64,000 bases of DNA from Escherichia coli (lineage in GTDB: Bacteria; Pseudomonadota; Gammaproteobacteria; Enterobacterales; Enterobacteriaceae), in NCBI RefSeq assembly GCF_003334305.1, contig NZ_QOWS01000005.1. One strand, written 5' to 3'. A program made the position numbers and the translations under genes. The notes under the pieces were generated by a model. The model saw nothing but the letters and a program-made list of their open reading frames with translations, did no database searches and had not been told where the DNA came from. This document shows positions 14,562 through 24,144 of the stretch, piece after piece (positions within the stretch are counted from its first letter, which is position 1; every line of letters begins with the position of its first letter).

Positions 14562-14605
14562 TCCATTTCACTCCAGACCCTAACTTCAGCTCCTGCAAAA
14601 TCGCA

Positions 14606-14621
14606 AGGTAAACGTTTGCCT
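14606..14621 (-). promoter_or_regulatory. PurR operator (PUR box) in purR 5' leader
   Basis: Minus-strand AGGCAAACGTTTACCT, near-palindrome with the AAACGTTT core of the PUR box; about 45 nt upstream of the purR start codon. Confidence 0.6.
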
Positions 14622-14859
14622 TTACACACCTTACGCACAACAAAAGTGTTGCGGTACGCCGGAAAAACGACACGGAGCGTCAGGAAGGGGTCAATGGCCA
14701 GTACGCAAATAGTGTAAGCGTGGAATTTTGGCCGATCTTGACGAAAAGGGGAAGTGGTAAAAACACTTATCATTATAAATGACGGGAGATTTTTTCATCA
14801 CAGTGTGTAAAAATGCGTAATATCACTTTTTGTGTGGTAATAAAAAAGGAGAAAACTTG

Positions 14860-14949
14860 ATGAGCACCGACCTTAAATTTTCACTGGTAACAACGATTAT
14901 CGTCCTCGGTTTGATCGTAGCCGTGGGTTTGACTGCCGCGCTGCACTGA
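14860..14949 (+). CDS. ynhF: Small membrane protein YnhF (29 aa)
   Basis: Not in ORF track (below length cutoff); ATG at 14860 after GGAG, encodes MSTDLKFSLVTTIIVLGLIVAVGLTAALH, single TM helix; matches remembered ynhF. Confidence 0.7.
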   Translation: MSTDLKFSLVTTIIVLGLIVAVGLTAALH

Positions 14950-15114
14950 TTTCCTCTCGAGGGAGCGCGTTCTCCCTCGCATCTCCTTCCTGTTTGTTAG
15001 CAAAATGGCAAAAGTGTTTTCTCTTTTTGTTATTTTCATTTTTTTGTGATTGCTGTCATGCTTTCGCCACTTTAATGAATATCGCGTAATGACGCGAAGA
15101 GGTGGAGATAAGGC

Positions 15115-18635: not shown

Positions 18636-18649
18636 TCCGTCCTGCAATA

Positions 18650-18685
18650 CTGACGGATGCGAACGGGCATCCGTCAGTCCTTTCT
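18650..18685 (+). terminator. Terminator hairpin downstream of grxD
   Basis: 11-bp stem CTGACGGATGC / GCATCCGTCAG with 6-nt loop followed by TCCTTTCTCT. Confidence 0.55.
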
Positions 18686-21600
18686 CTATCCCCAATCCAG
18701 CCCTTGTGGCGAACTTGAAAATCCCGCCTCACGCAGCAGCGTAAACATCGGCGTTTGCCGGACCGGTAGAGCATTCACTTCTGTTAGCGTAAAGCGCAGC
18801 CGTGGTTCGCGACGCAGTGCGGTAGTCAGCGCGTGGAAAACCTCTGGGGCGAGTAATTCCTCTTTTTCCTGCCAGACCAGCATTTTTTTGCCACCTTGCG
18901 CCAGATAGAGTAACAATTTGCCGCCAGAAACGACCACCAGCGCACCCGCCCGACGCGTTGGAACCAGCGTTGCCGGATGTGCAGGCCAGGGCAGAAGATT
19001 TCCCCACACATTAGCCGGATCGTTGGCAGAGAGCGCCACTGGTGTATAGTGGCGCGTTTGCGTGGCTTGTGTCGCCAGATCGCGCAATCGGTCAATAGTC
19101 AGACGTTCAGCGAATTGCGCGCCACCCAGACCTTCTACAAAACGACCTCGCATAATTCGCCCGGAGTCTTCCATACTTCGACAAAGCGTTTGCATCGATG
19201 GAAACCCGCCAGGGATATTTTCGGCTATCACCGCCTGACGACTGATGATGCCGTAGCGGTCGAGCATATTTTCCGCCAGCGCCAGCATCCTTTCGGTATC
19301 GTTTAGTGGCTCCACCTGCAATAACGACCAGCGTCCAGCCAGATTTGGTGTGTTGTAAGATACCAGCGGCGAGACGGGTTGCGCATAGACAGGACGTCCA
19401 CGACGAGCCCGGTGACTGCGGCGAGTTGAGGTGCGTGCGTTGGAACTGCTGCGGGTGAGGGCGCGTAACGGTGCCCAAATGTCGCTGGTGATGACGCCTT
19501 GCCAGACCAGCGCCCATAACGCCTCTTGCAGGGCAGAGAGATCAACCGATTCGCCGATTTTGTCGCGTATCCGTTGGCTGATTTGTTGTGCAAACCAAGC
19601 TCCTCCGTCAGCCAGAACAGCGACTATCGCTTGTTGCAGCGCCGAACGATTCGCCTGATCCGCTTCGGCGGGAGTGAACGATTCTGCAGCATATTCCTGT
19701 AGATGCAGTGCCACCAGGCCGTCATCTTCACCCAGTTTTTTTTGCCCCGACCAGATAACCGCACCGGTTGCCAGTAATTCATCGAGCATTTCTGACGAAT
19801 AGTCGCGTACGCGGGCAGGCAGGATCTGGCTTTCCCAGAGTGAGGCGGGTAAACCGACTCCGGCAAGCTGTTCGATCACCCGCATCACGCCATCTACGCC
19901 CTCATAAACGCCTGGCGATGTTGAGGCAAAGAGCGCCGGGCTACCATCGGTGGCGGGTAATACGCCCTGACGTTCCAGCAGCAATCGCGCATAGGTCGTG
20001 GCTGCAACGGGACGCGTCGCTTCTCTGGCGGCTTGCAGCGAGCGCAAACGCAGACGACGAAATACTTCATCGCTCACCCAGATGTCTTGTTGCAGATTCA
20101 TCACCAGACCCTGTTCACGCAGTTGCTGAAGCTGCTCTTCGACAATGGCAATACCGAGACTAAACTCATGAGCCAGTTGTTCAGCCGTGACCAGAGCATG
20201 AGCCCGGAGATAGCGCAGAAAGAGATCGCGAAGCGGGTAACTGACTCTATGTAAATAAATCTCTGGCAATGACTCTGGTAGTCGTACGCCGAGGGCATCA
20301 CGCAGCCTGGCGGCATCATCCATACAGGCAAGACGCTCCTGTCCGCTAATCATCGCTGGGAAGATTCGTTTTACTGCAAGAAGATTTTCCAGATACGACG
20401 CAACCTCTTCACTGCTGCCTGTATGCCGTTGCGCCAGGTCTTCAACGGTCATTGGCCCCAGTTCGCGCAGCAGGTCGAACAATCCTTCTTCACCTTTCGC
20501 TCTTCTGCCAGGAGCCAGTCGTTGCAACTCTTCTTCCACCTGGCGAATGACCTGCGGGTCGAGTAATTCCCCCGGATCGACCTGTCCGAGTAGATTGCGC
20601 AGTAACTCGCTGTCCAGCGACAGTACGGATGCCCGGCGCTCTGCCAGCGGGGCGTCGCTCTGGTACATAAATTCCGCGACATAGCCGAACAATAAACTTG
20701 TGGCGAAAGGCGAGGGCGTAGTGGTCGTTACATCGGATATTTGAATTTCGCCACCGTTCAGGCGACGCATCAAACGTTCCAGTGCGGGAAGATCATAAAC
20801 ATCTTGCAGACATTCGCGTAGGGTTTCGAGAATGACCGGAAAATCCGGATATCCCTGAGCGATTTCCAGCAACTGACTGGCGCGCAGCCGTTGTTGCCAA
20901 AGCGGGGTGCGATGGCCCGGAGTGCGCCCCGGCATTAATAATGCCCGCGCGGCGCATTCGCGAAAACGGGCGGCGAAAAGTGCCGAGCTGCCTACCGCCT
21001 CGCGGACAATTTGCAGCAACTTTTCTGGTTCAAACAAAAAAATCGCGGCGTCGGGCAATTTACCATCAGTGTCAGGAATGCGCGCAACAATGCCGTCATC
21101 ACTGGCGACCACAGACGCGTCAGCGCCCCATAGGGCATGTATTCGCCCGGCAATCGCCAGCGCCCAGGGTTCATGCACCCGTCTTCCATAGGGAGAGTGC
21201 AAAATAATACGCCAGTCGCCAATTTCATCACGGCACCGTTCGAGGACCAGATGGCGACTCCCCGGAACGATGCCCGTCGCGTTGCGTTGCTCGTCAATCA
21301 ACCCCTGAATATTGGCGTTCGTATTTTCTTCTGCCAGCCACGGGGGAATAGTCCCGGAAAAGAACGCGCCATCCGCCAGTAAATGAAGAAAATCGCCGAT
21401 CATCTCGCCTAATTCAGCCGGACGTCCGTTACCTTCACCACGCCAGAAGGGGAGCCGGGCAGAACGACCCGGAGCAGGAGTCACAATCACCTGATCGCGG
21501 GTGATTTGCTGGATCCGCCATGAGGTAGCGCCGAGAGTGATAATGTCGTTCACCCGCGACTCATATACCATCTCCTCATCCAGTTCACCCACCCGCCGCG

Positions 21601-23302
21601 AACCGGCCTGTTCTTCACCTTCGGGTAATAACACGCTATACATGCCACGATCCGGAATGGTGCCGCCGCTGGTAACCGCCAACAATTGAGCGCCAGGTCG
21701 GGCGGTCAATATCCCGGTCTCCCTGTTCCAGACCAGTTTGGGGCGAAAAGCAGAAAAATCGCCAGAGGGATAGCGCCCGGAAAGCATATCCAGCGTGGCG
21801 TCAAAAACACGTCTTGGCAGATCTTTCCACGGTGCGGCACGGCGTACGCGGGAGTACCATTCGTCTACCTGTAATGCATCCATCGCCGCGGCGGCAACGG
21901 TTTGCTGCGCAAGGACGTCGAGTGGATTATGCGGCGGTGTCAGGTTTTCCAGCCTGCCTGCGAACATACACTCTACAATGACTGCGGAATCGACTAAGTC
22001 ACGCCGGGTACGAGGGAAAAACAGCCCTTTAGATACACCGCCAACCTGATGTCCGGCGCGACCAATGCGTTGTAACCCACTGGCAACAGAAAGCGGCGTT
22101 GCCACCTGAATCACCAGATCCACCGCGCCCATATCAATCCCCAGTTCGAGACTGGAGGTTGCGACCACGCAGCGTAATTCACCCGATTTCAGCGCCTGTT
22201 CGGTGATTGCTCGTTGTTCTTTAGAGACGGAGCCGTGGTGTGAGCGGGCAATAAAAACGTCGCTACTTTGTACATGGTTAGAGGTTGCGCCGGAGGTCGA
22301 CTCGAAATGGGCCGTATCAACGGCGATAGACGGGGAACGCTGTAAGCGTGCGGCGTAAAGCTCATTTAATCGTGCCGTCAGTTTTTCCGCCAGCCCACGT
22401 GAATTAGTAAAGACAATGGTCGAGCGATGGCGCAACACTTCATCAAGGATACCCGTTTCAATATATGGCCAGATGGAGCCTTCCCGGCCGGCATGGCTGT
22501 CTTCGCCGGTGCCGCTGGCGACCGATGAGACATCATCCATATTGGCGACCGGTACGACAATTCGTATCTGCGGATGGCGCATTGCGGGCGGGTTGACTAC
22601 CGTAACCGGGCGATCGCCACCAAGAAATGCTGCCACATCGCTGGCTGAGCGCACAGTGGCAGAAAGGCCAATTCGCTGTGCTGAGGTGTGGAGCAGCGCA
22701 TCGAGCCGCTCCAGACTTAACGCCAGATGCGCACCACGTTTACTGCCCGCTACCGCGTGGACTTCATCAATAATTACCGTTTCGACGCCGCGTAGCGTTT
22801 CGCGCGCGCGGGAGGTCAGCATCAGATAGAGTGATTCGGGTGTGGTGATCAGAATATCCGGCGGATTACGGGTGAGTTTGCTGCGTTCCTGTGCAGGCGT
22901 ATCGCCAGTACGGATCCCTACGCGAAGATTGACTTCCGTTTCGCCGCGCCGCCGCCGTTCATCGGCAATACCCTTCAACGGGAGCTGCAAGTTGCGCTGA
23001 ACGTCGGTGCCCAGAGCTTTTATCGGTGAAATATAGAGGATGCGTGAGGTTTTACGCTTATGCGCCTCGCGGGTATCTTCGCCGCCTTCGCGGAAGAGCC
23101 GATCGAGGGCGTAGAGAAATGCTGCCAGCGTTTTCCCGGAGCCGGTCGGTGCAATCACCAGCGCATGTTCGCTTCGCGCCGCCACATGCCAGGTTTGCGA
23201 CTGGACAGCGGTCGGCTGTTTAAAGGCGCGAAGAAACCAGTCGCGGGTCGCCGGTGAAAACACGTCCGGCAGGAGCGATGAAGGGTCTGGATTATCTGCC
23301 AT
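18686..23302 (-). CDS. lhr: Large ATP-dependent helicase Lhr
   Basis: ORF-track 1538 aa; Walker A TGSGKT, DEVH box, superfamily-2 helicase motifs in N-terminal half. Confidence 0.95.
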   Translation of the reverse strand: MADNPDPSSLLPDVFSPATRDWFLRAFKQPTAVQSQTWHVAARSEHALVIAPTGSGKTLAAFLYALDRLFREGGEDTREAHKRKTSRILYISPIKALGTDVQRNLQLPLKGIADERRRRGETEVNLRVGIRTGDTPAQERSKLTRNPPDILITTPESLYLMLTSRARETLRGVETVIIDEVHAVAGSKRGAHLALSLERLDALLHTSAQRIGLSATVRSASDVAAFLGGDRPVTVVNPPAMRHPQIRIVVPVANMDDVSSVASGTGEDSHAGREGSIWPYIETGILDEVLRHRSTIVFTNSRGLAEKLTARLNELYAARLQRSPSIAVDTAHFESTSGATSNHVQSSDVFIARSHHGSVSKEQRAITEQALKSGELRCVVATSSLELGIDMGAVDLVIQVATPLSVASGLQRIGRAGHQVGGVSKGLFFPRTRRDLVDSAVIVECMFAGRLENLTPPHNPLDVLAQQTVAAAAMDALQVDEWYSRVRRAAPWKDLPRRVFDATLDMLSGRYPSGDFSAFRPKLVWNRETGILTARPGAQLLAVTSGGTIPDRGMYSVLLPEGEEQAGSRRVGELDEEMVYESRVNDIITLGATSWRIQQITRDQVIVTPAPGRSARLPFWRGEGNGRPAELGEMIGDFLHLLADGAFFSGTIPPWLAEENTNANIQGLIDEQRNATGIVPGSRHLVLERCRDEIGDWRIILHSPYGRRVHEPWALAIAGRIHALWGADASVVASDDGIVARIPDTDGKLPDAAIFLFEPEKLLQIVREAVGSSALFAARFRECAARALLMPGRTPGHRTPLWQQRLRASQLLEIAQGYPDFPVILETLRECLQDVYDLPALERLMRRLNGGEIQISDVTTTTPSPFATSLLFGYVAEFMYQSDAPLAERRASVLSLDSELLRNLLGQVDPGELLDPQVIRQVEEELQRLAPGRRAKGEEGLFDLLRELGPMTVEDLAQRHTGSSEEVASYLENLLAVKRIFPAMISGQERLACMDDAARLRDALGVRLPESLPEIYLHRVSYPLRDLFLRYLRAHALVTAEQLAHEFSLGIAIVEEQLQQLREQGLVMNLQQDIWVSDEVFRRLRLRSLQAAREATRPVAATTYARLLLERQGVLPATDGSPALFASTSPGVYEGVDGVMRVIEQLAGVGLPASLWESQILPARVRDYSSEMLDELLATGAVIWSGQKKLGEDDGLVALHLQEYAAESFTPAEADQANRSALQQAIVAVLADGGAWFAQQISQRIRDKIGESVDLSALQEALWALVWQGVITSDIWAPLRALTRSSSNARTSTRRSHRARRGRPVYAQPVSPLVSYNTPNLAGRWSLLQVEPLNDTERMLALAENMLDRYGIISRQAVIAENIPGGFPSMQTLCRSMEDSGRIMRGRFVEGLGGAQFAERLTIDRLRDLATQATQTRHYTPVALSANDPANVWGNLLPWPAHPATLVPTRRAGALVVVSGGKLLLYLAQGGKKMLVWQEKEELLAPEVFHALTTALRREPRLRFTLTEVNALPVRQTPMFTLLREAGFSSSPQGLDWG

Positions 23303-23394
23303 TAACGCTATTCCCCGTGAATATCATGCTTGATGCGTGGAATAGCCTCACTATAGATGCCTGAATCATTGCATGTCATCAGGCATCGACTCGA

Positions 23395-24042
23395 TTACAC
23401 CTCTTCGGCGGCAGGTAGCGGCCAGCCTCCCAGACGTTTCCAGCGGTTGACGATTTCACAAAACAGCACAGCAGTGCGTTCGGTGTCGTACAGCGCGGAG
23501 TGCGCCTGGGTGCTGTCGAAGTCCATGCCAGCGGTCTGGCAAGCCTTTGACAATACGGTTTGTCCGAGTGCCAGCCCGGCCAGTGCAGCAGTGTCAAAAG
23601 TGGCGAAAGGGTGGAACGGGTTACGTTTCAGTGAGGCGCGTTCTGCGGCGGCCATCATAAAGCTGTGATCAAAATTGGCATTGTGCGCCACCATAATGGC
23701 GCGGTTACAGCCGCTCGCTTTAATACCTTTACGTACAACTTTAAAAATTTCGTGCAGCGCCTCGTATTCGCTGACCGCGCCGCGATCGGGATCGTTCGGG
23801 TCAATGCCGTTGAAGGCGAGGGCTTCTGGTTGCAAATTTGCGCCGACAAATGGTTCGACGTGGAAATGTAATGTGGTGTCCGGCATCAGCCAGCCTTGTT
23901 CATCCATTTTCAGGGTGATGGCGGCAATCTCAAGCAGCGCATCGGTTTTGGCGTTAAATCCGGCTGTTTCAACATCGATCACAACAGGATAAAAACCACG
24001 AAAACGGTCGCACAGACCGGTAAGTTGAGCGTTATCGGACAT
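23395..24042 (-). CDS. rnt: Ribonuclease T
   Basis: ORF-track 215 aa; DEDDh exonuclease motifs; immediately upstream of lhr on same strand. Confidence 0.95.
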
Positions 24043-24144
24043 CTGATTCTCTTAATACGGATAAATTGCAGCGCGCATTATGACAAATATTACTTGTCGA
24101 TGCAGTAAAGATGCGGGCGCGATGAGTTCACGCCCGGCAGGAGA

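Follow-up and report, generated by a model that had tools for sequence, protein, structure and literature searches.

The closest described counterpart of the rnt-lhr gene pair examined here is that of Escherichia coli K-12, whose Lhr (b1653) has been reported to translocate 3′-5′ driven by ATP, to unwind RNA:DNA and to form a homo-oligomer (PMC8053096). Another is the Lhr of Mycobacterium smegmatis, for which structures of the core (5V9X) and of the tetramer formed by the C-terminal domain (CTD; 7LHL) are available; its CTD is ∼35-38% identical to that of E. coli Lhr, and mycobacterial lhr lies in an lhr-nei2 operon, not beside rnt. Three further groups show a partial likeness: Lhr-core proteins (P. 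putida Lhr, ligase-associated DEXH helicases and archaeal aLhr), whose core aligns but which are without the CTD and have an MPE nuclease, not rnt, as partner; Hel308 and Ski2-like superfamily 2 (SF2) helicases, which share the RecA1-RecA2-winged-helix (WH) core and the 3′-5′ polarity but lack Lhr domain 4 (DEAD_assoc) and the WH2-6/β-barrel CTD; and the HTH_42 interstrand-crosslink glycosylases, among them AlkZ (5UUJ) and YcaQ/AlkX (9ZD6), whose reported substrate is crosslinked guanine, whereas that of Lhr is uracil. We analyzed the pair in a stretch of 64,000 nucleotides of E. coli contig NZ_QOWS01000005.1, referred to throughout as the window. Earlier publications cover the gene pair and its co-transcription as well as the fold and one enzymatic activity of the CTD, and the pair itself adds nothing new.

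Identity of the locus

The window is part of the E. coli chromosome, and its rnt-lhr locus was identified, with a probability of about 0.9 for this explanation as a whole, as the known one, that is, the very gene of the E. coli Lhr literature. It is made up of the following parts:

23395-24042, minus strand: rnt, encoding RNase T, a DEDDh 3′-5′ exonuclease of 215 aa (open reading frame and TIGR01298)
18686-23302, minus strand: lhr, encoding the large helicase-related protein of 1538 aa (open reading frame and NF007284)
23303-23394, minus strand: rnt-lhr spacer, exactly 92 bp

By megablast, a 5.6-kb stretch was 100% identical to E. coli strain A7, where it is annotated as grxD, lhr, rnt and gloA in that order, and 99.4% identical at the DNA level to K-12 W3110. 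The likeness to K-12 extends to the gene itself, the length of 1538 aa, the gloA-rnt-lhr order, the convergent grxD and the 92-bp spacer. Differences are confined to 10 of the 1538 residues of Lhr (protein 99.3% identical; P35S, I107L, A330T, R343H, K565Q, I662N, E670D, V715L, R1313L and D1511A), one of the 215 residues of RNase T (S210P) and three bases of the spacer (AAG here, CCT in K-12), and none of them falls on a known catalytic residue. The 215-aa protein scored 383 bits against the equivalog-level NCBIfam profile for RNase T (TIGR01298; cut-off 246) and has all of the DEDDh residues (D23, E25, D125, H181 and D186) in place. Lhr scored 3407 bits against the NCBIfam profile for long-form Lhr (NF007284, bLhr-HTH; cut-off 1496), with residues 1-1538 aligned to profile positions 1-1538. 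An initial annotation of this DNA had named an RNase T gene followed by a 1538-aa Lhr helicase gene, 92 bp apart on one strand, and these comparisons, together with the gap at 23303-23394 in the list of open reading frames, bear it out. The gene identities were thus established in this analysis, and the enzyme activities are taken from the literature: RNase T matures stable RNAs and also trims DNA 3′ ends, and Lhr is a bifunctional DNA-repair protein.

Domain architecture and fold of Lhr

Domain architecture and fold were established here from profile and structure-database matches, and divide Lhr into three parts:

21983-23302, minus strand: Lhr residues 1-440, two RecA-like ATPase domains (Pfam DEAD and Helicase_C; motifs I, II, III and VI)
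20702-21967, minus strand: Lhr residues 446-867, WH1 and domain 4 (PF19306 and PF08494), which complete the Lhr core
18689-20611, minus strand: Lhr residues 898-1538, the CTD, with WH2-WH6 and a C-terminal β-barrel and including an AlkZ/YcaQ-like subdomain

Pfam domains DEAD (residues 31-218), Helicase_C (349-417), WH_Lhr (446-616; E = 2 × 10−47) and DEAD_assoc (679-867; E = 3 × 10−62) follow one another along the core, and W620, described in publications as a ratchet residue, is present. The helicase motifs, which the initial annotation had placed within the N-terminal ∼800 residues, do lie there; the ATPase motifs all occur in the first ∼420 residues (TGSGKT starting at 53, DEVH at 179, SAT at 214 and QRIGRAGH at 411). 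In the Protein Data Bank (PDB), the M. smegmatis core (5V9X) matched residues 15-876 and the cryo-electron microscopy entry for the M. smegmatis CTD tetramer (7LHL) residues 15-1478, with Hel308 and Ski2-like helicases as the next best sequence matches (E values of 10−15 to 10−17). The profiles for Lhr-core proteins, NF010338 and TIGR04121, matched residues 13-883 below their cut-offs (574 vs 849 bits and 425 vs 850 bits, respectively). The core ends at about residue 870-897, with the CTD after that. The core (residues ∼1-880/897) is an SF2 ATPase reported to move 3′-5′ on single-stranded DNA and to unwind RNA:DNA hybrids in preference to DNA duplexes.

The remaining ∼640 residues form a separate module, as expected from the earlier description of the C-terminal part as non-helicase. 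The same description held that no motif could be recognized there by eye; this is correct insofar as residues ∼898-1538 hold no classical catalytic motif, but Pfam profiles now recognize the region through dedicated families (WH2_Lhr at 912-1016, WH3_Lhr at 1130-1206 and WH4_Lhr at 1334-1416). The CTD of the window Lhr has the five winged helices and the β-barrel of long-form Lhr, as well as the C-shaped arrangement of three WH modules and a β-barrel found in HTH_42/AlkZ-YcaQ proteins; an AlkZ/YcaQ-like fold has been described for the Lhr CTD (PMC8053096). Judged by its sequence, the window protein is a long-form Lhr family member on every defining feature that could be tested. A search for a glycosylase-like fold, as initially proposed, was thus answered by the AlkZ/YcaQ-like fold and by published uracil-DNA glycosylase activity (PMC8053096, PMC10953399). 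According to published work, the CTD also assembles the oligomer, and because it is an oligomerizing structural extension too, the alternative raised at the outset, that the C-terminal half is only a structural extension, stays live for the family as a whole.

Lhr works like the HTH_42 glycosylases without being a member of that group: the fold is common to both, and the catalytic motif is absent from Lhr. Identity to AlkZ and YcaQ is just 12-15%, and Lhr has two extra WH modules and the fusion to a helicase. The catalytic motif, Q-x-Q in AlkZ and Q-x-D in YcaQ, is not kept, Q1145-L-A1147 of Lhr standing opposite Q45-I-D47 of YcaQ in a register that is approximate (the hhalign comparison of the CTD profile with YcaQ was weak, with a probability of 2.6%, and not significant). 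Its absence is likewise stated by both laboratories concerned, that of PMC10953399 and the Shuman laboratory. Q1145 is invariant among Lhr family CTDs in an alignment of 87 sequences. The AlkZ-like profile PF06224 matched Lhr at an i-Evalue of 0.0011 (19 bits) on WH2-WH3, not on the AlkZ-like subdomain, and a PDB search with the last 70 Lhr residues alone returned no relevant match.

Conservation of the gene pair and loss of lhr

Published phenotypes place both proteins in DNA repair. RNase T trims 3′ ends and, together with Endo V, acts on deaminated bases, and deletion of rnt makes a strain sensitive to peroxide and UV (PMC3942315); an E. coli lhr deletion strain is sensitive to peroxide (PMC10953399). 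Given the repair role of RNase T, the removal of deaminated bases by Lhr and the peroxide-sensitive deletion, a joint role is therefore plausible, and both proteins act at 3′ ends or with 3′-5′ polarity. Positions 18686-24042 of the window were compared with loci L010-L013 and with L008, from a more distant enterobacterium. The pair was kept in all four Escherichia relatives examined and in one more distant enterobacterium, and the rnt-lhr context has been called conserved (PMC7437997). The phylogenetic span of this adjacency was sampled from few contigs, a contig scan with a single CTD protein giving four Escherichia loci only; homologue loci came from proteins shorter than ∼1120 aa, i.e. fragments, and several of them end at a contig edge upstream of lhr.

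The chances are nonetheless about even that rnt and lhr lie side by side through a lineage-specific accident of gene order and that the two proteins have no functional link, and several observations count against coupling, to which conservation gives no support. Of 5426 complete E. coli genomes, 1040 (19%; Nissle 1917 is among them) share one identical deletion of lhr that spares rnt and the spacer (a 100-nt junction probe matched end to end in the 1040 genomes, and by its halves only in all others). A total of 4388 bp is lost between two imperfect direct repeats of 10 bp, GGTTCGCGAC (18804-18813) and GGTTTGCGAC (23192-23201), and what is left of lhr is a remnant of 229 bp (4087-4315 in L001) that carries two pseudogene stubs, annotated by the Prokaryotic Genome Annotation Pipeline as “endonuclease” and “ATP-dependent helicase”. 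No mention of the deletion was found in the literature searched; its carriers are natural lhr-null strains in which the role of Lhr could be tested in vivo. Independent in-frame nonsense codons in lhr were found at W595 in the draft genome of the E. albertii type strain NBRC 107761 (∼4323-4325 in L012; a single draft, in which a sequencing error is possible) and at Q833 (TAG) in L008 (8956-8958) and L009, an enterobacterium represented by two sequencing runs. In NBRC 107761 and L008 rnt is intact, and the short L009 contig stops before rnt. Contigs L003 and L007, from a relative with a CTD ∼65% identical, have lhr in other surroundings, with no rnt upstream, and an actinobacterial locus, in which lhr is followed by a gene of the Fpg/Nei family, represents the known lhr-nei2 operon.

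Rates of change point the same way. Against the Escherichia relatives, dN/dS was ∼0.09 for lhr (0.15 for the CTD), compared to 0-0.02 for rnt and 0-0.013 for grxD, and relative to L008 RNase T was 91%, GrxD 97% and Lhr 69-74% identical. Evolution of Lhr is thus several times faster than that of RNase T and GrxD, which argues against an obligatory functional coupling; as far as these genome comparisons go, they argue that any coupling of rnt and lhr would be facultative.

Recent horizontal acquisition of lhr was considered on account of its GC content (56.8%, vs 50.8% for the window) and rejected, its GC3 of 55.7% resembling that of neighboring genes. A separate observation concerns a contig assigned to an Enterobacterales endosymbiont of Blomia tropicalis (L004, 98-8074), which begins inside lhr and encodes a CTD ∼49% identical. 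This lhr fragment adjoins a gene of 115 aa (no Pfam match on record; length as in grxD), followed by ParB, ParA-like and Rep3 genes, which suggests a plasmid-like context of lhr there.

Asp1536 and uracil excision

Both E. coli Lhr and its isolated CTD excise uracil, and the substitution D1536A abolishes excision, not DNA binding (PMC10953399). The codon concerned lies close to the end of lhr:

18695-18697, minus strand: GAT codon of Asp1536, the residue published as essential for uracil-DNA glycosylase activity

The presence of Asp1536 was established directly in the window Lhr, whose tail (...GLDWG) holds it, and the glycosylase assignment of the window protein is unchanged for that reason; its CTD would excise uracil from DNA in a manner that needs Asp1536. 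The residue is, on the other hand, not conserved across the Lhr family, which counts against uracil excision as a general property of the domain. In a MAFFT alignment of the 87 CTD sequences, the Asp1536 column is Arg in 79; Asp is restricted to the five enterobacterial ones, and one relative, 48% identical, has Thr. In a profile alignment M. smegmatis Lhr, ending in ...TPRGLRLR, has Arg at this position. Conservation is, in contrast, 95% or higher in 151 further columns of the CTD, including DPAN (1428-1431), LGxAQF (1392-1397) and GF...P.G (1527-1534).

This distribution favors a reading that we regard as possible but doubtful, in which the CTD is essentially a structural module for oligomerization and DNA handling, and Asp1536-dependent excision is a lineage-specific or minor activity and not the conserved function of the domain. 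It agrees with the missing AlkZ/YcaQ motif and with the reports of the Shuman laboratory on the mycobacterial CTD, which found no evidence for glycosylase activity, described the AlkZ-like DNA surface as buried in the tetramer, and showed that function in vivo depends on the tetrameric quaternary structure. Set against it are the excision assays on E. coli Lhr and its CTD, with DNA binding retained in D1536A, the peroxide sensitivity of the lhr deletion strain and the fact that the window protein carries Asp1536. Either Asp-dependent uracil excision may be an enterobacterial specialization, or the conserved function of the CTD may lie elsewhere, in oligomerization and crosslink repair as argued for mycobacteria. 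The confinement of Asp1536 to an enterobacterial branch could help to reconcile the glycosylase report for E. coli with the lack of such evidence for the mycobacterial protein.

Probable co-transcription of rnt and lhr

It is quite probable that rnt and lhr are co-transcribed. The 92-bp spacing on the same strand had been considered compatible with co-transcription from the outset, and this view held up: a terminator scan called no terminator-like site in the spacer, establishing the absence of an intrinsic terminator, and PMC8301817, which cites Reuven 1995, states that the two genes are co-transcribed. Term-seq tables for three growth conditions (Adams 2021) list no 3′ end for rnt and none within 200 nt before lhr, gloA and grxD ends being listed. 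Neither lhr nor rnt is listed in the supplementary files of SMRT-Cappable-seq, and Rfam gave no match to an RNA within the spacer or on the strand opposite lhr. The 1995 abstract by Reuven et al. reportedly opens by describing rnt as cotranscribed with a gene downstream of it. Two points speak against co-transcription as the full account. It rests on a secondary citation and a negative Term-seq result, and weakly expressed genes can escape Term-seq; in addition, the spacer holds a conserved hairpin and a σ70-like site with 10 of 12 matches:

23356-23387, minus strand: hairpin GAUGCCUGA-N14-UCAGGCAUC, starting 5 nt past the rnt stop codon, with no U-tract
23350-23379, minus strand: promoter-like hexamers ATGACA-18-TATAGT overlapping the hairpin, from a consensus scan; a candidate internal lhr promoter

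The hairpin has nine perfect pairs and a folding energy of −14.6 kcal/mol, with a z-score of just −1.6 relative to shuffled sequences. It is followed by CUAUAGUG, not by a U-tract, and was not called by the terminator scan for that reason. Across Escherichia species the spacer hardly varies; E. albertii, E. whittamii and two other Escherichia lineages preserve the stem, with differences in the loop bases. In L008, whose Lhr is ∼73% identical, the spacer is unalignable with that of Escherichia, and a hairpin of different sequence, GACCUGAU..AUCAGGUC, stands directly past the rnt stop codon (6315-6349; −22.4 kcal/mol, z = −5.3), again with no U-tract. That the position is kept without the sequence suggests a conserved RNA element. 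We infer that the hairpin may serve as a 3′-end stabilizer for an rnt-only species, stabilizing the rnt part of the message, or as a partial attenuator that reduces read-through and with it lhr expression; its role remains a lead, since the z-score of the Escherichia hairpin is only −1.6. The hexamers are conserved within Escherichia, not in L008, and promoter-like sites in the whole scanned region were no more frequent than expected by chance (8 vs 5.0 ± 2.6 in shuffled sequences). As they overlap the hairpin, an additional, lhr-specific start within the spacer may exist besides co-transcription.

A more comprehensive proposal, unlikely to hold in all of its parts together, would make rnt-lhr a facultative two-gene DNA-repair cassette that joins a DEDDh 3′ exonuclease to a 3′-5′ helicase/glycosylase and that is comparable, in split form, to exonuclease-helicase fusions such as WRN. 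The hairpin would set the ratio of RNase T to Lhr; the Asp1536 site would be an enterobacterial innovation on a CTD that ancestrally served oligomerization and crosslink repair; and the cassette would be dispensable and have been lost once, in a loss now carried by about one-fifth of sequenced E. coli.

It is unlikely that rnt and lhr form separate transcription units, with the hairpin ending the rnt message and ATGACA-18-TATAGT starting an lhr message ∼40 nt before the ATG: the perfect 9-bp stem so close to the rnt stop codon, its position kept in another genus and the promoter-like match conserved in Escherichia species would fit such an arrangement, but the hairpin has no U-tract, escaped the terminator scan and has a z-score of just −1.6, promoter-like sites of the region occur at chance frequency, the hexamers are missing from L008, no rnt 3′ end is listed by Term-seq, and co-transcription is stated in the literature.

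Boundaries of the probable transcription unit

Co-transcribed, the two genes would most likely share a promoter located shortly before rnt, past the gloA terminator. Three features bound the unit:

24114-24136, minus strand: intrinsic terminator hairpin of gloA, the upstream boundary of the rnt-lhr unit (terminator scan)
24077-24085, minus strand: candidate extended −10 element TGTCATAAT for rnt, read from the sequence
18649-18678, no strand assigned: 12-bp hairpin between the convergent lhr and grxD (terminator scan, plus strand)

The gloA terminator comprises nine pairs, seven of them G-C, followed by CATCTTTACT, and Term-seq (Adams 2021, supplementary file 1) records a primary 3′ end for gloA; the 61-nt sequence given for it stops at ∼24100 in the window. 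Between this terminator and the rnt start sits TGTCATAAT, which the consensus promoter scan did not report because it has no good −35 element; by its position we infer that it is the likely rnt promoter. At the other end of the unit, the 12-bp hairpin is the terminator of grxD, for which Term-seq (Adams 2021) shows a very strong primary 3′ end at this hairpin, and it is probably the end of the rnt-lhr transcript as well. Read from lhr, the sequence past the hairpin is AUUGCAGG and lacks a U-tract, and the Term-seq tables list no lhr 3′ end.

Published Term-seq/Rho tables further place a region of Rho-dependent termination ∼220 nt past the grxD 3′ end, within the final part of lhr and in antisense orientation to it (K-12 coordinate 1733486); the stretch concerned is ∼18690-18915 on the plus strand of the window. 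Transcription reading through from grxD therefore extends antisense into the part of lhr for the C-terminal tail of the protein.

Other RNA features in the window

Elsewhere in the window, Rfam matches at gathering level comprised the small RNA STnc550 (14562-14952, plus strand; 396 bits), a match to the antisense RNA HPnc0260 (5689-5851, plus strand) and two tRNA genes on the minus strand (5816-5889 and 5897-5970), the first of which is overlapped by the HPnc0260 match on the opposite strand.

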